A DNA stretch of 64,000 bases, from positions 21,048 to 85,047 of the forward strand of contig JACPEP010000008.1 in the NCBI GenBank assembly GCA_016183425.1, written 5' to 3'. This DNA comes from Chloroflexota bacterium (GTDB taxonomy: Bacteria > Chloroflexota > Dehalococcoidia > JACPEP01). Positions within the stretch are counted from its first letter, which is position 1. Every line of letters begins with the position of its first letter. Positions 1 through 19,466 of the stretch are shown in pieces. A program made the position numbers and the translations under genes. A model generated the notes under the pieces. It saw only the letters and a list, made by a program, of their open reading frames with translations. It did no database searches and was not told the origin of the DNA.

Positions 1-133
1 GCTTAGGAGCCTCCCGGAACATGATGTCGCAGATAGCGCCCATTTCCAGATTCCAGTGGGCCCCCTGTATGCGCTTAAGCTCCCCCAGTTCCTCCACCTG
101 CGTCAGCCAGTCTCGTAAATCTCGATAGGCCAT
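1..133 (-). CDS. UbiD-family decarboxylase, N-terminal start only; gene continues off the window
   Basis: Reverse translation from 133 gives MAYRDLRDWLTQVEELGELKRIQGAHWNLEMGAICD, which matches the conserved UbiD N-terminus (LRDFL..LE..GELKRI). AGGAGG sits 7 nt upstream of the ATG. Confidence 0.55.
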   Translation of the reverse strand, partial: MAYRDLRDWLTQVEELGELKRIQGAHWNLEMGAICDIMFREAPK

Positions 134-145
134 TTTGTTCCTCCT

Positions 146-754
146 TCAACGCGCCTGCCATGTTTCTGCCACCCGCCGCCGCTCCTCCTCCGTGAGGCCG
201 TAGAGGTCGTAGACCAGGACGTCTATCTCCCTATCGGTGCGGGCGATCTCCCGCTCCAAGTCTTCTCTCTCACTCTGGGGCAGTGACTTATCCGCCTTCC
301 GGCGATGCAGTTCCAGCATCCCCTCCACCAGGGCCACCAGCCGGCCATGCATCGCCTTCTCTTCCGGGTTATCAAAGTCGATGCGGGGAAGTGGGAGTTT
401 ACCAACATAATAGTCGTCAAAATCCATCGTTCTGATAGCATTGGAGAAGACGAATTTGTAGGCATACCAGGACGCAAATCGGGAATTTAACAAGGCTACA
501 ATAAATTGGTAGGCAAATCTTTGGTCGGTTAAGACAGTGTTCTCCACCGTATCTAAAGTAAGGACGCCGTCTTTGTCTAAGGCAGACATCAGGATTATAT
601 GGTCCGATGGTTGTAGCACATGAGCTACTATGCGTTGGGTCAAAACTTTGGGCTGGCTCAACAAAGAGACCTTTTCGTTCGCTGTTCTCAGGACTTTTTC
701 GGGTAGCCTTTCAGATGATTTATACAGCGCATACCTCTGATTTATACAGCGCAT
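146..754 (-). pseudogene. Orphan 3' fragment of a type IIG RM gene: diverged TRD half plus a conserved C-terminus. It is an alternative or remnant allele of the 3680..6601 gene.
   Basis: The 202-aa ORF ends ...DFDNPEEKAMHGRLVALVEGMLELHRRKADKSLPQSEREDLEREIARTDREIDVLVYDLYGLTEEERRRV. This is near-identical to the last ~60 aa of the 973-aa RM enzyme, while the upstream ~130 aa are a diverged homolog of its TRD. Nuclease and methylase domains are absent. The start lies inside a 22-bp tandem duplication. Confidence 0.75.
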
Positions 755-759
755 ACCTC
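716..759. repeat. Perfect 22-bp tandem duplication (tgatttatacagcgcatacctc x2) at the 5' boundary of the orphan RM fragment
   Basis: Read directly from the sequence at 716-737 and 738-759. 22 is not a multiple of 3. Confidence 0.8.
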
Positions 760-1000
760 GTAATGTGATCTCCTCGATAGACTGGCGGGCCTAGCAGGGT
801 GTTGAAAAAGCCTGTCGGCGGCGCTACTTGAGACGGCAATCGTGGCTAACTGGACTCAACTTTGGCCCAAGAGGCCGAATTTCAACAGCCTGTTAGGCAC
901 TGACGACCGACCAGACCCCGAAAGCCCAACGAGGCTCGAAACCAAGACTGCCACCTGAAGACGGGGACGAAGACTCTGCCCAAATAAAGAGTCAGGTCTA

Positions 1001-1300
1001 TTAGACATGATAGGTAATGCCGGCACTTGCTTCAAAATTCGCAGAACGTCCACAACGTGCGACAAATGTGCCTGCTGGTAGGTCAACCTCACAACTTGTC
1101 TTACCTTGCGCAAAGATTGGCGGTGACTGGTGGGGTGGATAGTGAAAAAGAAGTCCACGAATTTCGAAGCTAGAAGCCCACTGTCCTAGAGTTATCTTTA
1201 CTGTTTGGAAGGTGGGTATACTGAATATTGCTTCATGGTCAACAATCTCAAGATGGTTTGATTCTCTCCACCACCCAAAACGAACTGTCTTTTCTGTCAT
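1001..1300 (-). CDS. Hypothetical protein (99 aa)
   Basis: ORF with AGGGAG about 8 nt upstream of the ATG (rc of 1301-1322) in a locally lower-GC stretch. No recognisable motif. Confidence 0.3.
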   Translation of the reverse strand: MTEKTVRFGWWRESNHLEIVDHEAIFSIPTFQTVKITLGQWASSFEIRGLLFHYPPHQSPPIFAQGKTSCEVDLPAGTFVARCGRSANFEASAGITYHV

Positions 1301-1623
1301 ATTTCATCATCTCCCTTTAATGTTTTTCGGTAATTCCAAAGCCCATTTACCCGCAATTCCCAATGCCTGACGTTCGGCTTCAGCCGCTGCGGCCCAGGGC
1401 GCGGACGATCTCGAGCATATGTCCTCCAAACGCAACGAGGGTCTAACTATTGATTAGGCAGCACCTTTGAAGTACAATGCTCCCCAAGGAGTATTATACC
1501 GCAACCGCCTCGATATCGCCCCCCCCTAGCCTTCTGGCACGCACACCATACGGTGACAATTCGGAGATGGGGCACTTCCGCTACTAATTATATGACTTTT
1601 GTCAATACATTTGTGACGAGGCC

Positions 1624-1691
1624 GTTTAATAATGGGGGTTACAAGGGGGCGAAGCCCCTTTGACGGGGGTCTGGGGGTACCCCCCAGATAC
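1624..1691. repeat. Left copy of a ~68-bp GC-rich double-hairpin element. It is an inverted repeat of 6655..6723.
   Basis: The reverse complement matches 6655-6723 at ~93%. It contains the palindromes ctggggg-tac-ccccag and caagggggcgaagcccccttg. Confidence 0.8.
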
Positions 1692-1772
1692 ATCATCGCC
1701 CCTTTCGCTGCCTCTATTCTATCCCTTCGCCATTCCATCCACCCGCCGCCGCTCTTCCTCGGTGGGGCGGCA
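1692..1772 (-). repeat. Copy D, the shortest copy of the RM-gene 3' terminus plus stop-linker-RBS
   Basis: The minus strand encodes ...EEERRRVDGMAKG* followed by agaatagaggcagcgaaagg. This is the same motif found at the real RM stop (3680). Confidence 0.7.
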
Positions 1773-1808
1773 AGGTTGCCGGTGGGCTAGAAAAGGCGAG
1801 GCCTTCTT

Positions 1809-2164
1809 TTATGGTAAAGGTCGAGATCGCACCCGACCTGGCGTCACCACGGTTATATGGCTGATCAACTCTTGCAAATCTCTGCCCTCCATGAAATGAG
1901 ATAGAAGATGGGTCAAATCAATGGCGGTGTAGGTGTCTGGCGCCCTAATAAGAACTAGACCTGGGGGCGGGGACGTGGTTCTCGGAAGGGGAAAATCGAG
2001 GTCTCTGTAATAAGTATCCGTCCTTCCTGGGCGGCCTTTTGCCATATGAGGACGTCTTCGCTGCCCCTAAGGGGAGGATCGGCCACTTCTATGAGGTCAT
2101 GTCCCTGGTCGCGGAGTACCTCGGCCATCTGGCGGGGGAGGTTCTCATCGAGGAGGAAGCGCAT
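1809..2164 (-). pseudogene. DUF5615 (PIN-like/Mut7-C RNase) toxin, frameshifted
   Basis: N-part MRFLLDENLPRQMAEVLRDQGHDLIEVADPPLRGSEDVLIWQKAAQEGRILIT (2164..~2020). The C-part is in another frame: ...YYRDLDFPLPRTTSPPPGLVLIRAPDTYTAIDLTHLLSHFMEG...ITVVTPGRVR (to 1809). Together they cover a complete DUF5615 domain. Confidence 0.6.
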
Positions 2165-2375
2165 ACAGCCGTTCTTCTGCTAGTGCCTCGGCGGCGTAGG
2201 CTAGGGCGGCCAGCACGTCTTCTTGGGCGAGCCGATATTCCCGGCAGACTTCTTCTACCGTCATTCCTCCCGCTAGAGAGCCGATGACGACCTGGACGGG
2301 CACTCGGGTTCCTTTGATGACCGGCTTGCCCCCCATTATCTCGGGGTTGATGGTGATTCGCTCTTGCCAATTCAT
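2145..2375 (-). CDS. DUF433-family protein, the antitoxin-like partner of DUF5615
   Basis: MNWQERITINPEIMGGKPVIKGTRVPVQVVIGSLAGGMTVEEVCREYRLAQEDVLAALAYAAEA is the DUF433 signature. AGGAGG lies upstream and the gene overlaps the DUF5615 start. Confidence 0.7.
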   Translation of the reverse strand: MNWQERITINPEIMGGKPVIKGTRVPVQVVIGSLAGGMTVEEVCREYRLAQEDVLAALAYAAEALAEERLYALPPR

Positions 2376-2387
2376 AGACAGCGCCTC

Positions 2388-2577
2388 CTTTGCTGCCTCT
2401 ATTCTACCCCTTTGCCATTCCCTCCACCAGCCGCCGCTCCTCATCGGTGAGGCCGTAGAGGTCATAGACCAGGGCGTCTATCTCCCTATCGGTGCGGGCG
2501 ACCTTCCGCTCCCGGTCTTCTTTCTCACTCTGGGGGAGGGACTTATCCGCCTTCCGCCGATGCAACTCCAGCATGGG
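2388..2577 (-). repeat. Copy C of the RM-gene 3' terminus (~190 bp) plus stop-linker-RBS, immediately upstream of the DUF433 cassette
   Basis: Encodes ...MLELHRRKADKSLPQSEKEDRERKVARTDREIDALVYDLYGLTDEERRLVEGMAKG*, then aatagaggcagcaaaggagg followed by the DUF433 ATG. Confidence 0.8.
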
Positions 2578-2601
2578 ACTACCAAAGCTACTGCGACAGC
2601 A

Positions 2602-2823
2602 TTACATTAGTTTGATAAACTCGTCCACCCCAAGACCAGCTTGTCTGATGATGGCGCGCAACGTCCCTCCGTCCAATTCTCTATGGTCAGGAACGACCAC
2701 CTGGGCAAAGGGGTCATCTCGCCGCAAGATCATGTGGCTACCCTCTTGCCGCTTCAGGTAGAATCTAGCCTTACCAAGGGCCTTGACGCACTGGCGTCCG
2801 GAAACCCTCGGCAACTTGCTCAT
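2602..2823 (-). CDS. hicA: HicA-family mRNA-interferase toxin
   Basis: MSKLPRVSGRQCVKALGKARFYLKRQEGSHMILRRDD...GTLRAIIRQAGLGVDEFIKL is a typical HicA (GSH motif). It overlaps hicB by 4 nt. Confidence 0.8.
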   Translation of the reverse strand: MSKLPRVSGRQCVKALGKARFYLKRQEGSHMILRRDDPFAQVVVPDHRELDGGTLRAIIRQAGLGVDEFIKLM

Positions 2824-3026
2824 ACTGCCACTACCAACGTTTCAAAGCGCTCCTCAGGAACAGGCAGGCCATCTTCCTCTAATGCGGCAACGTAGCCCCG
2901 AATCGCCTCTTTGATGTTGGCAATGGCTTCTTCTTTCGTTTTCCCCTGACTTATGCACCCCGGCAAGCTGGGGCATTCAGCCACCCAGTACCCATCTTCG
3001 CCAGGATAAATTATCACTTGTCGCAT
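2820..3026 (-). CDS. hicB: HicB-family antitoxin
   Basis: MRQVIIYPGEDGYWVAECPSLPGCISQGKTKEEAIANIKEAIRGYVAAL matches the HicB/UPF0150 fold signature. Confidence 0.8.
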   Translation of the reverse strand: MRQVIIYPGEDGYWVAECPSLPGCISQGKTKEEAIANIKEAIRGYVAALEEDGLPVPEERFETLVVAV

Positions 3027-3057
3027 CTTTCACCTCCATGTGGTTCCAGGGCGAACA

Positions 3058-3222
3058 ATAAGCCACTCATATTCTACCCCTTCGCCGCTCCCACCACCAC
3101 CCGCCGCTCCTCCTCCGTGAGGCCGTAGAGGTCGTAGACCAGGGCGTCTATCTCCCTATCGGTGCGGGCGATCTCCCGCTCCATGTCTTCCTTCTCGCTT
3201 TGGGGGAGGGAGTTATCTGCCC
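3058..3222 (-). repeat. Copy B of the RM-gene 3' terminus (variant C-terminus ...EEERRVVVGAAKG*)
   Basis: ~90% nucleotide identity to 3698-3860. It is followed by the HicB cassette. Confidence 0.8.
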
Positions 3223-3380
3223 CGTAGCAGGGCGATGAGTTCTTGACGAGACATCTCTATGTCTCGTCCAATCTTGAGCAAGATACCTGGCCCCAGGACC
3301 TCCCCGAGGTGCACTGGCACTACCGTGGCTCTGCCATCGGGGTGTTTCAGGAAAACATGGCTTCCTCGTTGGCGCATCAC
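3213..3380 (-). pseudogene. hicA: hicA remnant in frame with the upstream hicB, separated by an in-frame TAG
   Basis: Hand translation of the minus strand after the TAG at 3381-3383 gives VMRQRGSHVFLKHPDGRATVVPVHLGEVLGPGILLKIGRDIEMSRQELIALLRGR*. The HicA N-terminal helix (LPALTGAEVVRALEQAGF) is encoded at the end of the hicB ORF. Confidence 0.65.
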
Positions 3381-3653
3381 CTAGAAGCCGGCCTGCTCCA
3401 ATGCTCGGACGACCTCGGCTCCAGTAAGGGCAGGGAGTCGGCTCACACAGCCACCCGCTGTACACCCACCAGTTCCAGGGGCTCCCTCCTCTTCGCCCTG
3501 CACCTCCAGGCACAGCCGGATAGCTTCCTTGATGCGCTCAAGGAGCTCGTCCAGGGAGCGGGCCTGGGTATGGCAGCCGGGCAAAGAAGGGACACTGGCT
3601 ACCAGGTAGCCCTCCTCGTCCCGCTCGATAACCACCGTGAACTCTTGTGCCAT
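3381..3653 (-). CDS. hicB: HicB-like antitoxin whose reading frame runs into the HicA N-terminus
   Basis: MAQEFTVVIERDEEGYLVASVPSLPGCHTQARSLDELLERIKEAIRLCLEVQGEE, then a G/A-rich linker, then LPALTGAEVVRALEQAGF, then TAG. Confidence 0.65.
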   Translation of the reverse strand: MAQEFTVVIERDEEGYLVASVPSLPGCHTQARSLDELLERIKEAIRLCLEVQGEEEGAPGTGGCTAGGCVSRLPALTGAEVVRALEQAGF

Positions 3654-3679
3654 GGCTCGCCTCCTTCGCTGCCTCTATT

Positions 3680-6601
3680 CTACCCTTTTGCCATTCCCTC
3701 CACCAGCCGCCGCTCCTCTTCCGTGAGGCCGTAGAGGTCGTAGACCAGGGCGTCCATCTCCCTATCGGTGCGGGCGATCTCCCGCTGGATGTCTTCTTTC
3801 TCGCTCTGGGGCAGTGACTTGTCCCCCTTCCGCTTGTGCAGCTCCAGCATCCCCTCCACCAGGGCCACTAGGCGATCATGCATGGCCTTCTCTTCCGGGT
3901 TATCGAAGTCGATGCACCGGATGGGGAGCTGGCGGAGGAACATGGTCTTATATATGAAAAAGCCGCCCATCTTGGGAACTGCTATTCGCTTGTAATAGTA
4001 TTCAAGCAATTTGGAATTCAGCAATGCCAGCAGATAGAGCCGGTTGGCTCGTGTATCATTCTTCAAAACGATGCCACAAACTGTGTCAAGATAGAATTGC
4101 TCGCTTGTGGCTAAGGCAAACTTGGACTCCGACGCGATCTCTTGACAGACGATTTTGCTGACGGCCTGCTTATCATAACTGCGCTCGTTCCACAGCTCAA
4201 ACCAGGCTTTGCCTGAACTCTCAAAATAGTGCCGTCCCGCAAGCTTATCTCGCTTGGACTGCAAGTAGCCATAAACCTTCGGATACAGCGCACTGAGATC
4301 TGTTTCCTCTAACGCAACGCTCTTGCCATTAAGCAAGGAATAGGGGTAAATCATGAGATGGGTCAGTTCTTCAAGATACCAACGTTCAACGTGTCTGCCT
4401 TGAATAGCAGGGCGAAGCAATGCTTCCTCTAGCCCAAGTTGCGCGGCAACTTGACTCGGTACTACGAACACTGAGTTCGCCCCAGTTACAACCCCCTCAT
4501 TGATGCCCTCAACTAACTCTCCCAGGCGGTCAACGCGTCCCGCTTTCACTGCCTCAATAACTGACCGAGCGCTAGGTGATACAAAAGTCCATCCCCCGGC
4601 GGAAAGCGCCGACTGTTTAATTGAATAAGATTCCGCTTCAAGTCCCCCGGCAAAGTAAACGAAGAAATGGTTTTCCGGCCTCCGTTTCTGCACAATGAGT
4701 AAACACGTATAATTTATTGCACCTTCAAACACCTGGCTGTGCTGGAAGTCAACAATGGCTGTGATTGCTGTACGGTCTTTAAGTAACTCCCTAAGACGTG
4801 CACCATGTTGTCGCTTCATGAAATTGGTCGGGCAAATAAAGCCCAAATAGCCTTCTTCTTTAAGTAATTGAAGGCCACGCTCAATAAAAGGTAAATACAG
4901 GTCGAAACGACCAATTGCGCTGTAGTAATTATTGCGCAAATAAGGCTTGTCCTCTTCAAACCCTTGAAATCCCAGATACGGTGGGTTTCCCAACACCACG
5001 TCGAAGCCGCCCCCCTTCGACAGGCTCAGGGCAGAGCGGGCCATGATGTCGGGGAACCCCTCCTCCCAGGTGAAGGGGTGCTTATCACGCCAGGCGTCGC
5101 CAAAGTAGGGCTTTAGCTCCGCCTCGCCGCCGGAGATGAGGGAGTTGCCGCGGCGGATTGTATCGGCCAGGCTGGGCAAAAGCTCCTGCTTGGCCAGGGC
5201 GCGCAGGAGCAGGTTCAGCCGGGCGATCTGCACTGCCTGGTCGTCCAGGTCTACGCCAAAGATATTGCGGGTGAGGATGCTTATACGCTCGGCCCAGCCT
5301 AGCTCTGAGGGGGTCCTACCCTGCACCCGGGCATGATAGGCCAGAAGTTCGTCGTAGGCGCGGATGAGAAAGGAGCCGGAGCCGCAGGCCGGGTCGAGGA
5401 TCTTCATATTGAAGACTTCATCATAGGTGCGCTCCGCCAGGAAGCGCCCCACTGTCTGGCGGACGATATAGTCCACCACCCACCTGGGGGTGTAGTAGAT
5501 GCCCTGGGCCTTACGCTTTTGCTTCTTGGCGGCTAGCTCATAGCTCAGGTCTTCACCCTTGCCCAAAAGCCTTAACTGCCTTTCCTCTTGCCGAGCGCGC
5601 TCCTTCATCACTTCGGCTACATGGCCCAGGTATTGCTCATAGACGGCCCCCAGAACATCGGCGTCGATGGCGGCGAAGTCGTAACCGGCCAGGCTCCGCG
5701 GCCGTTCGTAGAGCCCCTTAAGGATGTCTCCCAGGATATCGCTTGTGACAAAGACGGAGTCCCAGGGATTGAGGACAGGGAAAAGGTCGCTGTCGTAGCG
5801 TTGGGCGAATTCGTGGAATATGCGTCGAACATCGTCGAGAAGTTCGCCCGTATAGCCGCCGTGGCTCCCTCGCTGGTGAAGGGCCGCCAGGAGAAGGTGC
5901 TCCTCGATGCCCCTGTCCTCGGCGGTGCGGATGAAGATGAGGCGATTCAACAACTGCTGGATGAGCTCGTCGATTTGAGGGAGGCTCAGCCCAGGGTGAT
6001 ACTTGGCAATTTCGTTAAACAGCGTCTCCCGCCACTGGCGCAACTGGTCAAAGAGGCTCTTTTCCACCGGAACCCTGGGGCGCAGCGCCCCATACTGCCT
6101 TGCCTCCCTTTCGAAATGGCCGCTCTGCCAAGAAGATTTGGAGAGAAGCCAGAGCTTCTCGAAGTTCTCCAGGTAGTCCTGGGAGTCCAGACTGATGAAC
6201 AGTCGTTCCTCCTCAGCGCTAAAGACGCGCAACGCCCTGAAGTTGGTTAGTACCGCCCAGTTGACTCCTTTATTGTAGGCGTAAGTGATGGCCTGTCTTT
6301 TGAATTCAAGGTCATCCAAGTTCCGATAGGGACGTTTGACCTCGACAATGAACTGGGTTACCCCGCCAATACGGAAAATATAATCGGCCCTTTCGCGGGC
6401 CACGTTGTCCTCTACTGAGACTTCGTCGGGGTTCCGCACATCCCAGCCCAGGGCCTCGAAGAGGGGATTGATGAAGGACTGACGCGTTTGCGCCTCGTTC
6501 ATGCGGCGCAGTTGGGCATCCGTCCGCCGGTGGAAGTCTGCCACCATTGTGTCGATCTGGCGCTGGGCCTCTTCCTTAGTCATGGAGAGAGCGTTTAGCA
6601 A
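3680..6601 (-). CDS. Type IIG (type IIL/MmeI- or Eco57I-like) restriction-modification enzyme. It fuses an N-terminal PD-ExK nuclease, an N6-adenine methyltransferase and a C-terminal TRD.
   Basis: 973 aa. The N-terminus has D...EVK (RADYIFRIGG..FIVEVKRP). MTase motif I is ILDPACGSGSFL and motif IV is LGNPPYLG. The C-terminal TRD has the LLALLNS motif. Confidence 0.85.
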   Translation of the reverse strand: MLNALSMTKEEAQRQIDTMVADFHRRTDAQLRRMNEAQTRQSFINPLFEALGWDVRNPDEVSVEDNVARERADYIFRIGGVTQFIVEVKRPYRNLDDLEFKRQAITYAYNKGVNWAVLTNFRALRVFSAEEERLFISLDSQDYLENFEKLWLLSKSSWQSGHFEREARQYGALRPRVPVEKSLFDQLRQWRETLFNEIAKYHPGLSLPQIDELIQQLLNRLIFIRTAEDRGIEEHLLLAALHQRGSHGGYTGELLDDVRRIFHEFAQRYDSDLFPVLNPWDSVFVTSDILGDILKGLYERPRSLAGYDFAAIDADVLGAVYEQYLGHVAEVMKERARQEERQLRLLGKGEDLSYELAAKKQKRKAQGIYYTPRWVVDYIVRQTVGRFLAERTYDEVFNMKILDPACGSGSFLIRAYDELLAYHARVQGRTPSELGWAERISILTRNIFGVDLDDQAVQIARLNLLLRALAKQELLPSLADTIRRGNSLISGGEAELKPYFGDAWRDKHPFTWEEGFPDIMARSALSLSKGGGFDVVLGNPPYLGFQGFEEDKPYLRNNYYSAIGRFDLYLPFIERGLQLLKEEGYLGFICPTNFMKRQHGARLRELLKDRTAITAIVDFQHSQVFEGAINYTCLLIVQKRRPENHFFVYFAGGLEAESYSIKQSALSAGGWTFVSPSARSVIEAVKAGRVDRLGELVEGINEGVVTGANSVFVVPSQVAAQLGLEEALLRPAIQGRHVERWYLEELTHLMIYPYSLLNGKSVALEETDLSALYPKVYGYLQSKRDKLAGRHYFESSGKAWFELWNERSYDKQAVSKIVCQEIASESKFALATSEQFYLDTVCGIVLKNDTRANRLYLLALLNSKLLEYYYKRIAVPKMGGFFIYKTMFLRQLPIRCIDFDNPEEKAMHDRLVALVEGMLELHKRKGDKSLPQSEKEDIQREIARTDREMDALVYDLYGLTEEERRLVEGMAKG

Positions 6602-6654
6602 CCTTTTTCGACCATCCCCCTGGCCCCCTTCCTGGCCAGGAAGGGGGTGGTAAT

Positions 6655-6723
6655 GTATCTGGGGGACACCCCCAGACCCCCGTCAAAGGGGGCTTCGCCC
6701 CCTTGCAACCCCCGTTATTAAAC
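6655..6723. repeat. Right copy of the ~68-bp double-hairpin element, 54 bp upstream of the RM start codon and 5 bp after the coxL stop
   Basis: gtatctgggggacacccccagacccccgtcaaagggggcttcgcccccttgcaacccccgttattaaac. It is an inverted repeat of 1624-1691. Confidence 0.8.
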
Positions 6724-6727
6724 AGTC

Positions 6728-8983
6728 TCATGGAGGAGCTTGCTGTTTCCCCTTCTCTTTCAGCGCCCTCAACAGTCGCTCCGGGGTGATGGGGAGGTCT
6801 TTTATCCGGATGCCGGTGGCATGGTAGATGGCGTTGGCCAGGGCGGGGGCGGTGGGGAGGCCCGCTGGCTCCCCCACCCCCTTGGCCCCGAAGGGGCCGT
6901 TGGGGTCTACCGATTCCACCAGGATGGGCCGTAAGGGAGGGACGTCCAAGGCCGTGGATAGCTTGTAGTCGGCGAAGTTGGGGTTCAGGGTCTGTCCCTC
7001 CACCCGCACCAGATTTTCCCTCAGGGTGTAGCCCAGGGCCATGGCGATGCCCCCCTCCAATTGTCCTTCGGCGTTCATGGGGTTTATGGCCCGCCCCAGG
7101 TCGTGGGCGGCCGCCACCTGGAGCACTGTCACCTCCCCCGTCTCCGGGTCTACAGCCACCTCTGCCGCCTGAGCACCGAAGGCGTAGGCGTCGATGCCCC
7201 GCTCCGCGGGGTGGTCGAACTGGCCCTTGCCCAGAATGGCCACCCCGCCCTTGCGGTCGGGGGTGCCGGATACCTGAGAGAAGGGTATGGCCTTATCCTG
7301 GCTCCCAGCGACGAATATCTGCCCGTCGCGGATCTCCAGGTCGTCGGGGGAGGCCTCCAGCTTTTGGGCGGCCAGGGCCAGGAGCTCCTTTTTGGCTTCG
7401 GCAGCCGCCGCCCGAACGGCGTTGCCGGCAGTGAAGGTGACCCGGTTGGCCCGGGAGCCCAGGTCCAGGGGGGTGGTGGCGGTGTCCATGGCGATGACGC
7501 GCACCTTATCCACAGGCACGCCCAGCTCCTCGGCGGCGATCTGGGCCAGGATGGTGCTGGAGCCCTGACCGATGTCCGGGTTGCCCGTGAGCACCGTTAC
7601 CGCATCTTCACTGATGTTGACATAAGCGCTGGAGAACTCCCCGGAGGCCACGCCGCTCACGTGGATGAAGCTGGCCAGCCCCACGCCCTGGCCTGGCGAA
7701 GAGCTTTTTCTCCTCTCCGGCCACCCGATGGCCTCTGCCGCCTGTTCCAGGCACTCCCTCTGGCCACAGGAGGTTATCTTGTTCCCCCAAGGGCTTCTGG
7801 TGTTGGGGAGGTTGGCGTTCTTGGCCCGTAGCTCCAGGGGGTCCATGCCCATTCTCTCTGCCAGCATGTCCAGGAGGGACTCCATGGCGAATATAATCTG
7901 AGTGCTGCCAAAGGCTCGGAAGCGTCCCCCCCAGGGGTTATTGGTGTAGACGGCGTATCCTTCGTACTGGATGTTGGGCACTCTATACAGGGAGCACATG
8001 ACCCGGCCCTCCACGTCCGGCAACAGTGGCCCCACGTCGCTGTAGGCGCCGTTATCGATGATGATGCGGGCCTGCCAGGCCAGCAGGGTGCCGTCTCTCC
8101 GGGCGCCCACCTTAACCCAGATAATGTGGGGGTGGCGGGAGCGGGTGGAGATGAACTCCTCCTCCCGGCTGAGGACCACCCGCACCGGGCGGTGGCTTTT
8201 GCGGGACAGAAAGGCGGCGATGGCCTCCTCGGTGATGCGGGACTTGCTGCCGAAGCCGCCACCCACGTGCACGTGGTGGAAGCGAATTTTGTGGAAAGGC
8301 ATCGGGAGCACCCGGGCCAGGTCCTGGCGGGCGTAGTAGGGGGCCTGGGTGGAGCTCCACAGGGTGAGGTCGCCGTTGAGCTCAAAATGGGCAAGGCAGC
8401 TATGGGGTTCCATACATGAGTGGGCCACCGGATGGGTGGTGAAGGTGTCCTCCACGATGTAGTCAGCTTCGGCAAAGGCTCGCTCCACGTCCCCGTAGTG
8501 TCGGCGGGAGTGGCCGATGATATTCCGCCCTCCGCCAGAGGCGGACACCAGGGGGGCGCCGGGCTGGGAGGCGGCTATGGGGTCGAAGATGGCGGGCAGG
8601 ATCTCATAGTCCACCTGGATAAGCTCCAGGGCCTCCCGAGCGGTGTCCTCGTCTACCGCCGCCACCGCCGCCACCTCGTCCCCGATGTAGCACACCTCGT
8701 CCACCGCCAGAGGGTATTTGTCCTCGGTGTAGGCTGGCCCCATGAAGGTGTATTTTATCTTTGGGGTATCCTGGGCGGTGACGATCGCCTTCACCCCCGG
8801 CAGGGCTTCGGCGAGGTGCGTATCAATGCGCAGAATGCGGGCGTGAGGGTGGGGGCTGCGCAGTATCTTGCCGTGGAGCATCCCTCGGAGCTTTACGTCG
8901 CCGGCATAGCGGGCCTCTCCCGTCACCAGCAGGGGCCCATCCAGGCGAGGAATTCTCTTGCCAACCACCGAGAACTGGGTCAT
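6728..8983 (-). CDS. Molybdopterin-binding large subunit of a xanthine dehydrogenase/CO-dehydrogenase (CoxL/aldehyde oxidase) family enzyme
   Basis: MTQFSVVGKRIPRLDGPLLVTGEARYAGDV... matches the Ald_Xan_dh_C/C2 architecture. The start is at 8983, with AGGGGG upstream. The ORF caller extended it to 9211. Confidence 0.75.
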   Translation of the reverse strand: MTQFSVVGKRIPRLDGPLLVTGEARYAGDVKLRGMLHGKILRSPHPHARILRIDTHLAEALPGVKAIVTAQDTPKIKYTFMGPAYTEDKYPLAVDEVCYIGDEVAAVAAVDEDTAREALELIQVDYEILPAIFDPIAASQPGAPLVSASGGGRNIIGHSRRHYGDVERAFAEADYIVEDTFTTHPVAHSCMEPHSCLAHFELNGDLTLWSSTQAPYYARQDLARVLPMPFHKIRFHHVHVGGGFGSKSRITEEAIAAFLSRKSHRPVRVVLSREEEFISTRSRHPHIIWVKVGARRDGTLLAWQARIIIDNGAYSDVGPLLPDVEGRVMCSLYRVPNIQYEGYAVYTNNPWGGRFRAFGSTQIIFAMESLLDMLAERMGMDPLELRAKNANLPNTRSPWGNKITSCGQRECLEQAAEAIGWPERRKSSSPGQGVGLASFIHVSGVASGEFSSAYVNISEDAVTVLTGNPDIGQGSSTILAQIAAEELGVPVDKVRVIAMDTATTPLDLGSRANRVTFTAGNAVRAAAAEAKKELLALAAQKLEASPDDLEIRDGQIFVAGSQDKAIPFSQVSGTPDRKGGVAILGKGQFDHPAERGIDAYAFGAQAAEVAVDPETGEVTVLQVAAAHDLGRAINPMNAEGQLEGGIAMALGYTLRENLVRVEGQTLNPNFADYKLSTALDVPPLRPILVESVDPNGPFGAKGVGEPAGLPTAPALANAIYHATGIRIKDLPITPERLLRALKEKGKQQAPP

Positions 8984-8996
8984 CGTTCCCCCCTTG

Positions 8997-10451
8997 CTAT
9001 ACGATGGTGGGGTGAAGGTTGAGGAATAGTCCAGAAAGCAGGGTTCGGGCCCTCTCCTCGCTGACGAAGTCAGTGAGCTTGATGCGCTCCAGGAGCTCCT
9101 GATCTGGATTGCCCAGCTCTGGGAAGGGACGGTCGGTGGGTTTGGTGCTGTCGATGATAAGCCCCCCCGTTCGCATATAGGAAACGGGGGCCGGATCCTG
9201 GCGGTTGGCATCCAGGTCGCCTATCTTCTGCACCTGATATGTGTTGGCATCCACCCGGGTGCCTAAGGAGAAGAGCACCTCATGGATGTCGAAGGGATTG
9301 ATGTCGGTGTCCACAATGATGACGTTCTTGACGAAATCCCCGGCTGCCAGGAGGGTAAGCAGGCCGACCCGGGTGGACTCGCCGGGGTGGTCGGGCTGGA
9401 ACTGCACTACCGCCACGAAGGGGGCGGGGACGTAGGCGGCTCTGACCCTGGGATAGGCCTGCTTCAGGGTGCGGGTCAGGGCCAGGGCCAGGCTGGTGGC
9501 ATGATACAGGTCGTGGCGGGCGATGTGGGCGTCGAAAACCGGCTCCGCGGCCATGGTGATGGCCGTGGGGCGGAAGATGGGCTCCAGGGTCTGGGGAGAG
9601 TAGTAGCGCATGTAGTCTGTCCAGGGCCCGTTAAGGCCCCGTTCCGTGCAATGAAGGTAGCCCTCTAAAAGTATCTCGGCATCGGCGGGGACGAGGAAGT
9701 CCTCCCCCCAGGTTTCGGAGGGCGTAAGGCGCAGGGGTTCCCCCATGAGGCTGGCGGCGTAGTCATACTCATCCACGTCGTAGCCCACCCGCACCGACGA
9801 GGCCAGCATGAAGGTGGGGTAGTGACCCAGCACCCAGACACAAGGCATCTCCTCGTGGCCGGCGTCCCGGTAGCCCTGGAGGTAGCTCCACAGGTGGCGG
9901 TACTGGAGGCGGGCGGCGGCGCTCTGGGGGCCATGGAGGAGGAGACGGTGCCAGGAGAGGTTGTAGCGGCCGCTCTTGATCTCTCGGCCGATGGCCACGC
10001 CGCAGAACCAACCGGGGCGGGCATCCTTGGCGTCCTTGCGGTAGGCGGGGAGGTCCCTGAAGTCCATGTCGGAGCCGGTGATGACGGTGTGCTTCACCGG
10101 AGCCTCTTCCTTTTTCACCACCACCGTTTTCTGGGGCACGGTGGAGTGCTCGTGAAGGGTATTGATGAGGCCCTCCGCTGTCCACCGCTCTGGTGGCAGG
10201 CCACAAGCCACCGCCAGCTTGGAGAAGGTGCCATCGGCCTGGGTCTGGAGGAGGCCGGGCCACCTTTTGCCGTTGAGGGTGACTACGTTCTCGAAGACAG
10301 CCATGGGCCATTTGGACTGTCTCTCAAGGTGGTAAAGAAGAGCGTGGCACTCGGCCTCATGGGGCTTCAGTGGCCCTTTGGTGACCCGGACAATTTCCTC
10401 GGGGTGATGCTTCTCCAAAGTGGCGATGAAGGACTTGATGTTATGTGCCAT
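8997..10451 (-). CDS. UbiD-family (prFMN-dependent) decarboxylase
   Basis: 484 aa with UbiD-family similarity throughout. Confidence 0.7.
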   Translation of the reverse strand: MAHNIKSFIATLEKHHPEEIVRVTKGPLKPHEAECHALLYHLERQSKWPMAVFENVVTLNGKRWPGLLQTQADGTFSKLAVACGLPPERWTAEGLINTLHEHSTVPQKTVVVKKEEAPVKHTVITGSDMDFRDLPAYRKDAKDARPGWFCGVAIGREIKSGRYNLSWHRLLLHGPQSAAARLQYRHLWSYLQGYRDAGHEEMPCVWVLGHYPTFMLASSVRVGYDVDEYDYAASLMGEPLRLTPSETWGEDFLVPADAEILLEGYLHCTERGLNGPWTDYMRYYSPQTLEPIFRPTAITMAAEPVFDAHIARHDLYHATSLALALTRTLKQAYPRVRAAYVPAPFVAVVQFQPDHPGESTRVGLLTLLAAGDFVKNVIIVDTDINPFDIHEVLFSLGTRVDANTYQVQKIGDLDANRQDPAPVSYMRTGGLIIDSTKPTDRPFPELGNPDQELLERIKLTDFVSEERARTLLSGLFLNLHPTIV

Positions 10452-10463
10452 ATCTCTTCCTTA

Positions 10464-11690
10464 CTAGCTCCGGGTTTTCAGTACCCGTTGCACTATTTCC
10501 CGAAACTCACCTTCGTCCAGGAGTCCTTTCTTGCGATGGGAGGCCTCTTTGACTTGGGCCAGGATGTCCCTGGCCTCCTCTTCCGTGGCGTTGAGGCCCA
10601 TTTTGTCCAGCCACATGGTAATGGAGTCGATGCCACTGCTTTTGCCCAGCACGGTCTCTGCCGCCCGATGGCCCACCAGCTCCCAGCGGAAGGGGAAGAC
10701 CTCCGTGGCGTGGTCATAGCCACAGTTCTTGAACCAGGTGGTGATGATGCCCGATTCTATCTGAAAGAGGCGGTCCCCCACGATGGGTTTGTTGGAGGGA
10801 AGCTGAAGGCCGGAGAGCCGGCGCACTGTCTGGGAGAGGGAGGTGAGCTTCTCGTAGTTGAGGCCCACATCTACCCCGTACATAGTGAGGAGGGCCATGA
10901 CCGTCTCCTCCAGGGGGGCGTTGCCCGCTCGCTCCCCCAAGCCTGATACGGTGACGTGGGCCACCTCCGCCCCCGCCGCCAGCCCGGCCAGGGTATTGGC
11001 CACCCCCAGGCCGAAGTCGCCGTGGAAGTGGGTCTCCAAGGGCACCTTCACCCGTTCCTTAGTCTTGTGCACAAAGTAGGCGGCGGCGTGGGGAGAGAGG
11101 ACGCCGAAGGTGTCCACTAAGGCCAGAGCATCCATGTGTCCCTCTCTGGCTACCCGTTCGATGAGGTTCAGGTACCAGTTCATCTCGGCCCGGGTAGCGT
11201 CGATGGGAAAGAAGACGGTGTAAAGCCCCTGCTCTCTGGCGTAGGCGGTGGCCTGGATGGAGAGGTCCAGGGCCTTTTCCAGGGGCCAGCGGTAGGCGTA
11301 CTCCAGGATATGCTCCGAGCAGGGTATCTCCATGACGATGCCTTTGACGCCACAATCCACGGCTCTCTTTACGTCATCCACCATGCATCGGGAGAAGACG
11401 AAGATCTCCGGCCCCAGGTTGCGCCTTACGATCTCTTTTACCGCCGCCTCGTCTTCCACAGAAACGGCGGGCATCCCGGCCTCGATGCGGTGAACGCCCG
11501 CCTCCGCCAGCATCTCGGCGATGCGGACCTTGTCCTCTTTGGTGAAGGCTATCCCGGCCTGCTGCTCCCCGTCCCTAAGGGTGATGTCGTGGATTTTTAT
11601 TCGAGGCGAGAAGGTGAGGCCAGCCGTCACCTCCGGCTGGTAGTTCCAGGGGCTGACGAACCAGTTCTCGGTCTTCCAGGGTTCAGTCAA
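10464..11690 (-). CDS. DRE-TIM metallolyase family protein (homocitrate/citramalate/isopropylmalate-synthase-like or HMG-CoA-lyase-like)
   Basis: HDITLRDGEQQAGIAFTKEDKVRIAEMLAEAGVHRIEAG is the pyruvate-carboxyltransferase (HMGL-like) signature. Confidence 0.65.
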   Translation of the reverse strand: MTEPWKTENWFVSPWNYQPEVTAGLTFSPRIKIHDITLRDGEQQAGIAFTKEDKVRIAEMLAEAGVHRIEAGMPAVSVEDEAAVKEIVRRNLGPEIFVFSRCMVDDVKRAVDCGVKGIVMEIPCSEHILEYAYRWPLEKALDLSIQATAYAREQGLYTVFFPIDATRAEMNWYLNLIERVAREGHMDALALVDTFGVLSPHAAAYFVHKTKERVKVPLETHFHGDFGLGVANTLAGLAAGAEVAHVTVSGLGERAGNAPLEETVMALLTMYGVDVGLNYEKLTSLSQTVRRLSGLQLPSNKPIVGDRLFQIESGIITTWFKNCGYDHATEVFPFRWELVGHRAAETVLGKSSGIDSITMWLDKMGLNATEEEARDILAQVKEASHRKKGLLDEGEFREIVQRVLKTRS

Positions 11691-11759
11691 CGGGCACCTC
11701 TTTTTCTATTCAAGATTTTCCAAAAGTAATCTGTATATCGAGGGCTTTGGCCCTCCCAT

Positions 11760-11900
11760 GATCTGGCGGGTCTTTGCCCTCACCCCCTCTGTCCCCCTCT
11801 CCCCGCCAAAGGCGGGGAGAGGGGGACGAATTTAAGAATCAGGGGGTGTACCCCCTGAAACCCCTGCCAGAGGGGCTGCGCCCCTCTGGACACCCCGCGT
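11760..11900. repeat. Intergenic cluster of three perfect GC-rich hairpins
   Basis: ccctctccccgcc-aaa-ggcggggagaggg, caggggg-tgta-ccccctg, ccagagggg-ctgcg-cccctctgg. Confidence 0.7.
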
Positions 11901-11905
11901 TTTCA

Positions 11906-12799
11906 TCAATAATTTTCTGTTGCCCTAGCCACCGCCTGGGCTATCTGAAGGGTCTTCTTTGCCCTCTCGGCCACGGCCACATCCACCATCCTCCCCTCCA
12001 CGGACACCGCCGCCGAGCCCTGGGCTACGGCGGCCTGAAAGGCCGCCACTACCTTCTGGGCGTTGGCGATCTCCTCCGGTGAGGGGGAGAACATTCTGTT
12101 CACTATTTCCAACTGGTCGGGATGAATGAGACATTTGCCCACAAAGCCCAGATGTCGTGCCAGATGGGCCTCCTGCTCCAGCCCCTCCCGGTCTCTGAAA
12201 TCGGAGTAGACGGTGTCCACAGCGGCGACGCCCGCCGCTCGGGCGGCGACGACGACTTGAGAGCGGGCGAAGAAGAGCTCCCTGCCTCTTCTGGTGCGGG
12301 TTATCCCCATGTCCAGAGTAAAATCCTCGGCTCCAAAAAGGAGGCCCACCACCCGCGGGCTGGCCGAGGCCACTTCCAGGGCGTTCATCACCCCCTTCGC
12401 CGTCTCAATAATGGGCAGTAGGGTGACGCTGCCCACTTCCAGCCCGTGCTTTCTCTCGGCATCAGCCAGGAAGCCCTCGGCGAGAAGGATGTGACCCGCC
12501 GACTCTACCTTGGGGATACAGATCCCGTCCAAACCTGGTCTTACCACGGCCTCGATGTCCAGGGGAGCCAGCTCTCCCGTCACCACGTTGGTGCGAACGT
12601 AGACGCGGCGCCAGAGCGTCCTCACACGAGGGAGGGCGTCTCGCACCATGGTACGGGCGGTTTCCTTCTCTGCCAGGGGCACCGAGTCCTCCAGGTCCAG
12701 GATGACCCCGTCCACATCCAGGGTGGCCGCCTTGTCTATACGCCGGAGGGAGTTGCCGGGGACAAAGAGCAAGCTTCGGAACAGGGCAACTTCTGTCAT
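11906..12799 (-). CDS. HpcH/HpaI aldolase / CitE-family acyl-CoA lyase (malyl-CoA/citramalyl-CoA/citryl-CoA lyase-like)
   Basis: 297 aa. FVPGNS...DLEDSV, the E/D metal ligands and the overall CitE pattern. Confidence 0.7.
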   Translation of the reverse strand: MTEVALFRSLLFVPGNSLRRIDKAATLDVDGVILDLEDSVPLAEKETARTMVRDALPRVRTLWRRVYVRTNVVTGELAPLDIEAVVRPGLDGICIPKVESAGHILLAEGFLADAERKHGLEVGSVTLLPIIETAKGVMNALEVASASPRVVGLLFGAEDFTLDMGITRTRRGRELFFARSQVVVAARAAGVAAVDTVYSDFRDREGLEQEAHLARHLGFVGKCLIHPDQLEIVNRMFSPSPEEIANAQKVVAAFQAAVAQGSAAVSVEGRMVDVAVAERAKKTLQIAQAVARATENY

Positions 12800-12820
12800 C
12801 TCACCCCTCCCCGCTAAGCG

Positions 12821-14026
12821 TTAAATAACCCCTTCCGCTTTGAGGTTTTCTCTTTCCTGCTCGTTGAGGCCCAGGAGCTTGCCGTAAACATAGTCATTGT
12901 CCTCCCCCAGAAGGGGGGCCGCCTTTTCTACTGCCCCCGGCGTCAGGGACAGCTTGGGGGCCGGCCCCTGGAACTTTAGCTTGCCAGCCGTGGGGTGCTC
13001 CACCTCCACCAGGGCGTTTCGGGCCTGGTACTGGGGGTGGCTCACCAGGTCGGCCACGGTGTTCACCGGCGCCACCTCGATGTCGGCGGCAACCAGAATT
13101 TCCTCGATCTCTTTGGTGGTTCTCTCCTTCACCCACTGGGCCACCGCCCCCTCGTAGTCCTCGATGAACTTGGCATCCAGGGGGTCCCGAGAGTGTTTGG
13201 GGAAGAGGGGGTGGGATAGGATATCCTCCCGACCTATTGCCTTGAGGAGTTGCGCCCGCTGTTGACCGCCGGTGATGAGAACATCGCCATCTTTCGCCTC
13301 GTAGGTACGGACGCCCGGGGTGGCAATGCGGGCACCCTTCCGCCACGCCACCTCTCCGAGGGATGTGAAGTGGAGGATCTTGTGCTCCATACAAAAGGCC
13401 GCCGATTCCAGAAGGGAGTTGTCTATCCACTGCCCCTGCCCCGTCTTCTGCTTGTAGTGGAGGGCGGTGAGGACGGCATAGGTATTGAGGAATCCTGCGA
13501 TGTAGTCCACAATGGCGATGCCATAGAAGGTGGCCGGACCGTCGGGTTCTCCGGTGACGCTCATCAGTCCGCTGGCCGCCTGGGCGATGTAGTCTCGCCC
13601 TGGCCGCTGGGCGTAGGGGCCGGTGGCACCGTACATGGAGACAGAGAGCATGATGATGCCTGGATTGACCTTCCTGATCTCCTCGTAGTCTAAGCCCCAC
13701 TTGGCCAAGGTCCCCGGCCGGAAGTTCTCTGTCACCACATCGCTGATCTTCGCCAGCTCTTTGAACAGCTCCTGGCCCCTCTTTTTTCTCAGGTCCAGGG
13801 TGATGCTCTTCTTATTGCGCGCCGACCATAGGAAATAGGGACCAATGCCTTTCACCAGGGGATGGTAACCATACCGCAAGGGGTCGCCCTGCCCCGGCTC
13901 CTCATAGCGAATGACCTCGGCCCCCATGTCTCCCAGCAGGGTGCCCACCAGAGGAGCGGCGAAGTATCGCCCCGATTCTAGAATCCTGATGCCTTCCAGG
14001 GCCTTGGGCATGGCTACTCCTTTCAC
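12821..14026 (-). CDS. Family III CoA-transferase (CaiB/BaiF)
   Basis: LEGIRILESGRYFAAPLVGTLLGDMGAEVI and the typical family-III length. Confidence 0.75.
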   Translation of the reverse strand: MKGVAMPKALEGIRILESGRYFAAPLVGTLLGDMGAEVIRYEEPGQGDPLRYGYHPLVKGIGPYFLWSARNKKSITLDLRKKRGQELFKELAKISDVVTENFRPGTLAKWGLDYEEIRKVNPGIIMLSVSMYGATGPYAQRPGRDYIAQAASGLMSVTGEPDGPATFYGIAIVDYIAGFLNTYAVLTALHYKQKTGQGQWIDNSLLESAAFCMEHKILHFTSLGEVAWRKGARIATPGVRTYEAKDGDVLITGGQQRAQLLKAIGREDILSHPLFPKHSRDPLDAKFIEDYEGAVAQWVKERTTKEIEEILVAADIEVAPVNTVADLVSHPQYQARNALVEVEHPTAGKLKFQGPAPKLSLTPGAVEKAAPLLGEDNDYVYGKLLGLNEQERENLKAEGVI

Positions 14027-14919
14027 CCTAAAACTTTCTGTAGCAGAGGAATTATCTCATTGAAGGTATCGGCCACATAGGCCCCCGCTTGGCGCAGCCG
14101 AGCGATCTTTGTCGAGGGCTTGCCCCGCTCTCCCTGGATTATGGAGGCGGCGTGGCCGAAAACGGTGCCCTGGGGCATCTCCTCCATGAAGAGGCCAGCC
14201 ACGTAAGCGATGAGGGGTTTGGTAAAGCCCCCCGCCTCTATGAAGTCGGCGGCCTCCTCCTCGTAGGCTGTTCCCGGCTCGCCAAACATTAGCACCCCTT
14301 TGGTCTCATCGTCCTTTTGGAACATCTCCAGAAGGTCTCGGGGGCTGGAGCCGATGAAGGGGTCGCCTCCGATGCTGATGCAGGTGCTGACGCCGTAGCC
14401 GGCCCGCTTGGCCATCCAGGCGCACTCGGCGGTCATGCCGCCGGAGCGGGAGATGACCCCCACTGGGCCCGGGATGAAGCAGCGCTCCACGTTGTCGCCG
14501 CCGATGGCTCCCATCTTCACCCGGTGGCGCGGGCTGATGATGCCCACGGAGTTGGGACCCACCACCACGGTGCCGCGACTCCTGGCCAGATGAAGGACCT
14601 TGACCACGTCCATCTGAGGTATCCGCTCCGTTATGATGAGGACGAGCTTCATGCCGTTGTCCATGGCCTCCAGGGCGGCGTCGGCGGCGAAGGCGGGAGG
14701 GACGTAGACGATGGCCGTGTTCAACTCATGCTCGCGGCAGGCCTGCTTCAAGGAGTCATACACGGGCACGCCGTGGACGTTGTCCCCACCCCGCCCGGGA
14801 GTGACCCCGGCCACGATGGGGGTTCCGTAGTCCAGGGAGTGGCGAGTGACCATGGAGGCCTCTCGCCCCGTGATACCCTGAATGACTATTCGGGAGCGCT
14901 CGTCGGCAAGGATAGCCAA
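14023..14919 (-). CDS. Succinyl-CoA synthetase alpha-like (CoA-binding/ligase alpha) subunit (SucD/MtkB/CcsB family)
   Basis: IVIQGITGREASM..., the CoA-binding domain, and the phosphohistidine-loop region GHAASI. Confidence 0.75.
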   Translation of the reverse strand: MAILADERSRIVIQGITGREASMVTRHSLDYGTPIVAGVTPGRGGDNVHGVPVYDSLKQACREHELNTAIVYVPPAFAADAALEAMDNGMKLVLIITERIPQMDVVKVLHLARSRGTVVVGPNSVGIISPRHRVKMGAIGGDNVERCFIPGPVGVISRSGGMTAECAWMAKRAGYGVSTCISIGGDPFIGSSPRDLLEMFQKDDETKGVLMFGEPGTAYEEEAADFIEAGGFTKPLIAYVAGLFMEEMPQGTVFGHAASIIQGERGKPSTKIARLRQAGAYVADTFNEIIPLLQKVLG

Positions 14920-14930
14920 TTTATACCTCC

Positions 14931-16148: not shown

Positions 16149-16160
16149 CCTTCACCCCCC

Positions 16161-17742: not shown

Positions 17743-17791
17743 CAGGCTGGCCGATATGTGGCTAATGGTATCTCTCCTTTATCTTTGTCTG

Positions 17792-18210: not shown

Positions 18211-18231
18211 GGGATTTGATGCATCCACCAC

Positions 18232-19365: not shown

Positions 19366-19466
19366 CCACTTCGATTATGTTCCATCCAACAGTTAGATTC
19401 AATCTCTCGGATTTTAAAGCAGATTGACACCCTTTGTCACCAACTTTGGGAAGACCGCTATTTAAT

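Follow-up and report, generated by a model that had tools for sequence, protein, structure and literature searches.

Displacement arrays are known from the genes of polymorphic toxins. In Rhs, CdiA and type VI secretion system (T6SS) arrays, a conserved part of a gene acts as the anchor, and horizontally acquired modules push older ones downstream, where these persist as co-directional orphans that keep the conserved piece; no integrase is involved, and recombination later swaps entire arrays (Jackson et al. 2009; Kirchberger et al. 2017, PMC5361080). Displacement through homology-facilitated illegitimate recombination together with homologous recombination has been proposed for the T6SS/Rhs arrays (PMC5361080). 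A similar organisation is described here for a Type IIG restriction-modification (RM) gene and the short genes behind it, in a 64,000-nt stretch of DNA from a Chloroflexota bacterium (contig JACPEP010000008.1 of assembly GCA_016183425.1; hereafter the window). The 3′ coding tail of this gene (its last 75-270 nt) recurs four times downstream, always on the minus strand like the gene itself, and extra tails lie behind related genes at 23 loci from other species. Judged from these comparisons, the locus is probably a cassette array of the displacement type, for which the conserved 3′ coding tail of a Type IIG RM family acts as anchor.

The variable unit of Rhs, CdiA and T6SS arrays is the gene's own 3′ end, the toxin tip, together with an immunity gene. 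At the RM locus, by contrast, the gene is complete: the repeat is the very end of the open reading frame (ORF), the variable units are separate genes past the stop codon, and displaced units of the toxin-tip type are not seen, with only one orphan, copy E, keeping part of a variable domain. The Type IIG tail as anchor, separate toxin-antitoxin and defence genes as cargo, and occurrence in archaea as well as in bacteria are new relative to the known displacement arrays.

Insertion with long target duplication is another close relative. Furuta, Abe and Kobayashi documented this class of RM-linked insertion in Helicobacter and other genera, with direct repeats of tens to hundreds of bp and no transposase or integrase (2010, PMC2853133). 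These properties apply here too, the repeat length varies in both cases, and one of the loci compared below, L010, shows an exact match to the class behind an mtnA gene. The documented insert is the RM unit, whereas here the RM tail would be the target, into which other cassettes were inserted serially. Furthermore, the repeats here carry a purifying-selection signature, which suggests that they derive from donors and not from duplication. Type IIG genes have also been reported to vary between alleles in the target-recognition domain (TRD) (PMC2853133).

Tandem islands at the 3′ ends of tRNA and tmRNA genes, including tycheposons, likewise comprise an intact gene and islands split by copies of its 3′ end, with repeated use of one site and adaptive or defensive cargo; cargo-only units of tycheposons are flanked by partial tRNAs (bioRxiv 10.1101/2020.12.28.424599). 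A preliminary description of the window, made from its sequence alone, compared the RM tail with such tRNA 3′ ends. The topology does agree, but the Rhs/T6SS displacement array is the closer analogue: the tRNA-end islands depend on tyrosine recombinases and a fixed crossover core, whereas at the RM loci there is no recurrent recombinase, boundaries are variable and the repeat is protein-coding. The cassettes are also tiny (0.5-2 kb) in comparison with these islands.

Two further systems share individual properties with the RM array. Cassettes of chromosomal integrons are co-directional, lie promoter-less behind one expressed gene and are rich in toxin-antitoxin genes, and the repeats are more alike within an array than across species. 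Specificity shuffling of Type I hsdS and Type IIG genes, for example at pneumococcal tvr/ivr, uses the conserved segments that flank TRDs as recombination arms; at such loci, the expressed gene has inverted partial genes close by, and specificity is usually switched by a dedicated recombinase. A parallel between displacement arrays and integrons has also been drawn in PMC5361080. The RM array differs from integrons in having no intI gene, no attC hairpins, repeats that lie inside coding sequence and boundaries that are not fixed. It resembles the hsdS-type loci in that the TRD is replaced beside a conserved tail (between loci L049 and L052, and between window copies A and E), and differs in that its partial copies are direct, mostly lack a TRD and delimit unrelated cargo.

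To our knowledge, the known routes by which defence islands are assembled need integrases, transposases or phage satellites. The present locus and its 23 counterparts point to an integrase-free alternative, in which the tail of a polymorphic restriction gene would be the landing site for tail-bearing DNA. Such a route would tie together the swapping of specificity domains, the co-location of toxin-antitoxin and RM genes and the occurrence of orphan gene fragments, and would extend the displacement model past polymorphic toxins and into archaea. The preliminary description knew of no account of a gene-end-repeat array at RM genes; none was found here either, in literature of incomplete coverage that included a 2025 review of RM biology, and an earlier description may exist.

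Tail repeats and cassettes of the window

By its predicted domains, the 973-aa product of the RM gene is a single-chain Type IIG enzyme (Eco57I/MmeI-like). An N-terminal HSDR_N-type nuclease (Pfam, 8e-10) is followed by an Eco57I/N6 adenine methyltransferase (Eco57I 2e-40, N6_Mtase 2e-22, MmeI_Mtase 7e-14), a TaqI_C target-recognition domain (3e-14) and a conserved C-terminal tail of ~80 aa; the translation contains GNPPY, an NPPY motif. Across the family, the C-terminal 76-80 aa are conserved and the preceding recognition domain is not. The tail is the only stretch past the hypervariable domain that alleles share, and for this reason it could serve both as a homology anchor and as a portable block.

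The true gene end (copy A) and its four downstream relatives (B to E) are 88.8-90.6% identical by blastn over 128-216 nt for A, B, C and E (E-values 1e-45 to 7e-80); copy D, over 73-75 nt, matches A and C at 85%. A, B, C and E have diverged from one another to nearly the same extent, in a star-like pattern without any gradient of age. All five frames run open to a stop codon, and the frame of copy C starts with an in-frame ATG. No further tail copy was found in the 64-kb window by nucleotide comparison. The preliminary description had reported the same minus-strand repeats at nearly the same positions, with every frame open to its stop, and had named an RM gene, decayed and intact hicBA, DUF433-DUF5615 and a TRD remnant; the repeats are reproduced by blastn and the gene content by Pfam.

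A post-stop linker had also been described as common to every copy, which holds for only part of the array. The linker agaatagaggcagcgaaggagg is common to A, C and D only; copy B shares just 7 nt of it (TAGAATA), and copy E shares none, diverging ~20 nt ahead of its own, different stop. Sequence beyond the stop travels with the cargo among the window copies. Correspondingly, across loci the homology between tails usually ends 0-35 nt ahead of the stop codon, with no common core, which implies that the final codons and the ribosome-binding site travel with the cargo that follows them.

Copy E is the only window orphan that reaches upstream of the tail. It retains part of a different, diverged TaqI_C TRD (Pfam 4e-8, profile positions 33-118), and its tail homology (169-397) is 89.8% identical to A. 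This agrees with the earlier statement that alternative specificity domains share this 3′ arm, as does a TRD swap between L049 and L052.

Three toxin-antitoxin cassettes lie between the tails. Cassette 1 is a decayed pair, in which the 3′ end of hicB (3381-3653; HicB_lk 6e-8) is fused to the 5′ end of hicA and the remainder of hicA (3213-3380) lies past an in-frame TAG (HicA 3e-10, profile positions 17-57 only). Cassette 2 holds hicB (HicB_lk 2e-9) and hicA (HicA 6e-18, full profile), both intact and adjacent as in a HicAB type II toxin-antitoxin module, which cassette 1 is not. Cassette 3 joins an intact DUF433 gene (3e-24) to a toxin gene of 69 aa that covers only positions 1-54 of 110 of DUF5615 (1e-14), and is therefore not a pair with a full-length toxin. 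The delimitation of these three cassettes by repeats agrees with the preliminary description, which missed a fourth spacer of ~860 nt between D and E as well as a 90-nt inverted repeat.

Recurrence in bacteria and archaea

Alignment of tails against one genome per species gave at least 553 confirmed matches, of which the best 80 loci were analysed. Arrays were counted at the 68 loci from other species that have at least 1.5 kb of downstream sequence. Extra tails, 1-5 each, are present at 23/68 loci and amount to 48 orphan tails. The hosts include Chloroflexota, Acidobacteriota, Verrucomicrobiota, Ignavibacteria, Armatimonadota, Coatesbacteria and Bacteriovorax, and among archaea Methanothrix, ANME-1 and Methanophagaceae.

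All 48 orphans lie on the strand of the RM gene and downstream of it, reach a stop codon and are 5′-truncated inside the conserved tail; no orphan on the opposite strand or upstream of the RM gene occurs at the 68 loci. An intact gene followed by co-directional orphans that hold the conserved fragment, as in a displacement array, is thus what is seen for window copies B-E and for all 48. Orphan length ranges from 25 to 109 aa (median 50), and the 5′ ends are scattered across the tail. Tails are 75-95% identical in nucleotides within a locus and 50-60% identical in amino acids between loci. Frameshifts are few despite 10-25% divergence; the frameshifted orphans are L057 13218-13431 and L073 13809-13902 and 14582-14862.

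No homology to the body of the RM gene lies beside any of the 48 orphans. Similarly, a recognition-domain profile searched against six-frame translations of the array fragments found a TRD remnant only at window copy E, among ~52 orphans. Random truncation of old RM genes as a general rule is rejected on this account. What is repeated is, rather, confined to the block in which alleles are homologous.

As a control, 341 further ORFs from the same loci, each at least 300 aa long, had their tails examined; ~5 were comparable, and the other hits were tandem paralogues or marginal. Other island genes with orphan C-termini downstream on the same strand include L032 15900-16955 (-), which encodes an unknown 350-aa protein and has three copies, L047 8703-9725, an Mrr nuclease, and L002 11129-12088, a spore-photoproduct-lyase-like protein. 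They hint at a phenomenon that extends beyond the Type IIG family.

Cargo between the tails

Pfam and PADLOC assign much of the cargo to toxin-antitoxin and defence families. The toxin-antitoxin genes comprise PemK/Phd, several PIN families with MazE/AbrB-type partners, HicAB, ParE/YafQ, MNT-HepT, MqsA with DUF4258, DUF433-DUF5615 and TumE. Defence genes include Mrr, an OLD-family ATPase with a UvrD helicase (Gabija-like), TIR, SIR2 (PDC-S65, 1.9e-69), Schlafen-like AlbA_2, YhcG nuclease and HEPN; the cargo further includes a TnpB and several ORFs without a match. The preliminary description of the cassettes as toxin-antitoxin modules bounded by tails therefore fits cassettes 1-3 of the window and is too narrow for other loci. 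The DUF433-PIN cassette of the window and that of L041 are different units.

Most cargo shares the direction of the RM gene and begins 0-40 nt past the stop codon of a tail. Such cargo may be co-transcribed from the RM promoter, and its toxin-antitoxin genes may be selected in a way that stabilises the island. A scan for promoters and terminators gave counts at the level of shuffled sequence.

Defence functions are over-represented among the ORFs that lie between tails, many of which match neither Pfam nor PADLOC, and this makes the tails a handle for searches. Those without a convincing match include L022 10350-11099 and 11359-12690; L057 10222-11799, 12119-13165 and 15561-16640; L061 1582-2520; L049 10318-10986; and L052 10236-10769. 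Such ORFs are candidate new defence or toxin genes.

Variation between related genomes

The preliminary description had asked whether content varies between fixed flanks, and in other lineages it does. The same cassettes recur at Methanothrix loci L040, L065 and L073, at different positions and in different order. A unit composed of the 3′ part of a tail, a PIN gene and a 70-aa gene follows the intact RM gene at L065, whereas it is the second of the array at L040 and the third at L073 (~91-92% identity). L040 and L073 also both hold an Mrr gene, a 50-aa gene and a truncated tail, with an identical cargo-to-tail junction. Furthermore, the L073 tail at 13758-13929 is chimeric, its 5′ part corresponding to tail 2 and its 3′ part to tail 1 of L040, which indicates that crossovers occur inside tails.

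The Acidobacteriota loci L049 and L052 are orthologous, with RM bodies 89.5% and tails 89.8% identical, and with a terminal orphan tail and downstream flank that are 86.7% identical; the cassettes in between differ. The TRDs of these orthologous RM genes (L049 8868-9968, L052 8906-9968) are unrelated, a clean natural domain swap.

At a Chloroflexia site behind the RM gene, L019 is empty, L004 carries DUF3800 and a membrane protein, and L008 carries a putative NYN/LabA-like gene, recognised by eye from its N-terminal sequence. Homology among the three breaks 52 nt before the stop codon, and the occupied sites of L004 and L008 show no detectable duplication relative to empty L019.

The RM gene of L010 is itself bracketed by a direct repeat of 154 nt (1532-1685 and 4429-4582; 92% identical), which corresponds to the 3′ end of the IF-2B/mtnA-like gene that lies upstream. 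Of the codon changes between the two copies, 6 are synonymous and 3 non-synonymous. This RM gene thus behaves as a cassette behind the tail of a housekeeping gene.

The surroundings of the window gave fewer comparisons. Exact-protein look-ups of the RM gene and of the coxL-like gene upstream of it returned no match, and neither did a 25-nt tail DNA pattern in metagenome contigs. The nearest coxL-like homologue is 53-54% identical and lies in a different neighbourhood; L001, the closest RM relative with context, is a single gene without repeats.

Origin of the arrays

Displacement at the tail would proceed as follows. Donor DNA from a related allele, with its own tail and cargo, would recombine through the resident tail; the RM gene would keep an intact, partly donor-derived tail, and the new cargo would land right behind the stop codon. 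The former tail and its cargo would be displaced downstream as a 5′-truncated orphan, and repetition would build the array. Cargo held between two tails could then be moved, deleted, reordered or exchanged between alleles and genomes by RecA-type recombination, for which a double crossover through the 5′ and 3′ parts of one resident tail may suffice in the case of insertion, deletion and reordering. The same recombination could also swap the recognition domain, the conserved methyltransferase region then providing the second arm. Copy E is likely to be the original gene end of the window locus and A-D later arrivals, as E abuts the putative ubiD-like gene and keeps a different recognition domain.

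Tail evolution bears on where the orphans came from. Copies made in place and left to decay are expected to show an orphan-versus-orphan ratio of non-synonymous to synonymous substitution rates (dN/dS) that approaches 1. Pooled Nei-Gojobori estimates put dN/dS at 0.28 between genes and orphans and at 0.29 among orphans, values that are biased downward by the discovery of non-window orphans through protein similarity; the window copies, which were found by DNA similarity, show the same low ratios, with non-synonymous to synonymous differences (pN/pS) of 0.28-0.39 for their six tail pairs. The orphan-versus-orphan value implies that most divergence predates orphaning, and most of it would thus have arisen while each tail ended a working gene. 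Together with the shared tail-cargo units and the chimeric tail, this ratio supports an origin of the orphans from different horizontally acquired alleles. The preliminary description had offered docking by recombination and leftover RM alleles as alternatives; variable cassettes, the chimeric tail, the low dN/dS and the lack of a recurrent recombinase and of attC-like folding support a combination of the two.

Several points weigh against displacement by tail recombination. Donor alleles that match the orphans were not identified, no recombination event was directly observed, the evidence being genome comparisons, and the collections searched hold no close relative of the window's metagenome-assembled genome (MAG) to compare at the coxL/ubiD locus. 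Pure homologous recombination cannot make the first junction of cargo to truncated tail, and random illegitimate first joins would leave many TRD remnants, of which only copy E has one. Part of the cargo is encoded on the opposite strand (L020; L073 cassette 0), so that co-transcription is not universal. The 80 loci are the best tail matches of at least 553 and not a random sample, and the pooled dN/dS has the bias given above.

A wider proposal, which is put forward only tentatively, is that polymorphic defence-gene 3′ ends are integrase-free portable attachment sites, at which defence islands of bacteria and archaea are assembled purely by homologous recombination. It would cover the occasional end of a housekeeping gene too, such as mtnA in L010. 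In a stronger version, selection would keep the orphan tails for cassette mobility or for translational coupling. If the proposal is true, tail-bounded arrays are a ready catalogue of mobile defence cassettes, including the ORFs without a match.

Among the alternatives to displacement, insertion in situ with long target duplication survives best, though as a full account it is unlikely. Cargo would insert in the resident tail and duplicate 50-250 nt of it, and the copies would diverge in place. The documented RM-linked cases lend this weight, as does the mtnA-like repeat around the RM gene of L010; the variable length of the duplicated segment fits the class, and repeats of 75-250 nt flank every window cassette. 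Divergence in place nevertheless conflicts with an orphan-versus-orphan dN/dS of 0.29 instead of ~1, with a gene-versus-orphan value that is the same and not intermediate, and with the near-equal, star-like divergence of A, B, C and E. The mostly synonymous changes in the L010 pair, the scarcity of frameshifts at 10-25% divergence, the chimeric tails and the tail-plus-cargo units common to different genomes also argue against it. Insertion with long target duplication is compatible with displacement by tail recombination, for which it is a candidate for the missing first-capture step.

It is very improbable that the orphan tails are functional and selected, either as small peptides that bind the C-terminal helix of the enzyme or as upstream frames for translational coupling. 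Their low dN/dS, frames open to the stop, a next start that is usually 0-40 nt on and the in-frame ATG of copy C would suit such a role. Most orphans, however, have no start codon or ribosome-binding site, their 5′ ends vary (25-109 aa), some are frameshifted (L057, L073), and divergence before orphaning explains the low dN/dS equally well.

A site-specific recombinase acting in trans, of an integron-like or tRNA-targeting-integrase-like kind, that inserts circular cassettes at a site in the tail is very improbable. The topology is that of integron arrays and of tandem islands at tRNA 3′ ends, the cargo is rich in toxin-antitoxin genes as in chromosomal integrons, and tails are similar within an array like the attC sites of sedentary integrons. 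Among 146 ORFs that flank 22 arrays, however, no integrase, resolvase or other recombinase family recurs; the flanks are unrelated housekeeping genes. Correspondingly, no recombinase is encoded in the 14 kb upstream in the window, whose products are UbiD, aldolases, a CoA-transferase, fumarase and a succinyl-CoA-ligase-like protein. As a sign of intI, the Phage_integrase family is seen neither there nor among the top families of the 146 ORFs, and on the downstream side the window ends just past the island. Orphan boundaries 25-109 aa before the stop codon, without a common core or recurrent integrase, are also unlike those of tRNA-type integrase islands, and the arrays span many phyla and archaea with tails that are only 50-60% identical in amino acids. 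attC-like or hairpin tails were considered and rejected, as neither strand of the tails folds better than shuffled sequence does (z = +0.22 to -0.98). A template/variable repeat pair like that of a diversity-generating retroelement was also considered; no reverse transcriptase gene turned up, no search aimed at one having been made.

Finally, although the window comes from a MAG contig, mis-joined or collapsed repeats are a negligible explanation: copies that differ by ~10% and have unique flanks would not confuse an assembler, and 23 independent assemblies, which represent different studies and phyla and include contigs of 0.6-0.7 Mb, show the same architecture.

Other features of the window

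The features of the island and its flanks are collected in Table 1.

Table 1. Positions of the RM gene, tail copies, cassettes and flanking features in the window.
Feature	Coordinates	Strand	Basis
Start of putative ubiD-like gene, downstream flank (ATG 131-133)	1..133	-	sequence
Tail copy E (145-397), end of 202-aa orphan ORF	146..754	-	
Fourth spacer, D to E, ~860 nt, lower GC	760..1617	-	composition
Inverted repeat, right arm, overlapping end of D linker	1618..1706	.	sequence, fold
Tail copy D, shortest orphan, ~16 codons, stop 1719-1721, linker common to A and C	1694..1768	-	
Cassette 3, DUF433 antitoxin-like (2145-2375) and truncated DUF5615/PIN toxin (1955-2164)	1955..2375	-	Pfam
Tail copy C, orphan, 56-codon open frame 2404-2574, same linker as A	2379..2574	-	
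Cassette 2, intact hicB (2820-3026) and hicA (2602-2823), 4-nt overlap	2602..3026	-	Pfam
Tail copy B, orphan, stop 3074-3076, 89% identical to A, own post-stop sequence	3070..3221	-	
Cassette 1, decayed hicB-hicA	3213..3653	-	Pfam, sequence
Tail copy A, true gene end (stop 3680-3682) and 25-nt post-stop linker with GGAGG ahead of hicB ATG	3655..3928	-	
Type IIG RM gene, 973 aa	3680..6601	-	Pfam
Inverted repeat, left arm, between coxL-like stop and RM start	6640..6729	.	88% complementary to 1618-1706
Molybdopterin oxidoreductase (4-hydroxybenzoyl-CoA reductase alpha / coxL-like), upstream flank	6728..8983	-	ORF; 100% identical to P0121; PF02738/PF20256/PF01315

The RM protein is 100% identical to one Chloroflexota MAG protein, its closest other homologues are 68% and 63% identical, and its nearest solved relatives are CamA, M.BseCI and PglX. 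The recognition-domain regions of gene A and orphan E (3900-4950 and 300-750) have a GC content of 42-50%, compared with 58-68% in tails and flanks, which is consistent with horizontal exchange of the domains.

The island interrupts a co-directional metabolic cluster (window 6728-20522, minus strand) of UbiD-family (9000-10451), 4-hydroxybenzoyl-CoA-reductase-like, HMGL-like, HpcH aldolase, CoA-transferase, succinyl-CoA-ligase-like and fumarase genes. The stop codon of the coxL-like gene adjoins the island, and directly past orphan E the cluster resumes with a second, putative ubiD-like gene, the gene at 9000-10451 being the separate one that matches Pfam UbiD. A GGAGG that overlaps the stop region of E sits 7 nt before the putative ubiD-like ATG.

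The 90-nt, hairpin-rich inverted repeat brackets the RM gene, the three cassettes and copy D, and its left arm folds with z = -2.8. A pair of transposon ends is not supported, as a target-site duplication is lacking and the window has a third partial copy at 23771-23793. These two properties suggest a dispersed hairpin element like the repetitive extragenic palindromic (REP) sequences.

No recognisable gene follows copy D by Pfam; the spacer between D and E contains a 99-aa ORF (1001-1300) with no Pfam family match. A DUF3800-IX RNA motif lies in the same spacer at 1514-1573 (minus strand; Rfam 48.8 bits, gathering score 36.8), and no DUF3800 gene was detected beside it in the window. The DUF3800 gene of L004 (10227-10595) overlaps the RM stop codon. 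A perfect 22-nt tandem duplication (TGATTTATACAGCGCATACCTC x2) at 716-759 falls exactly at the 5′ edge of orphan E and is possibly a junction scar.

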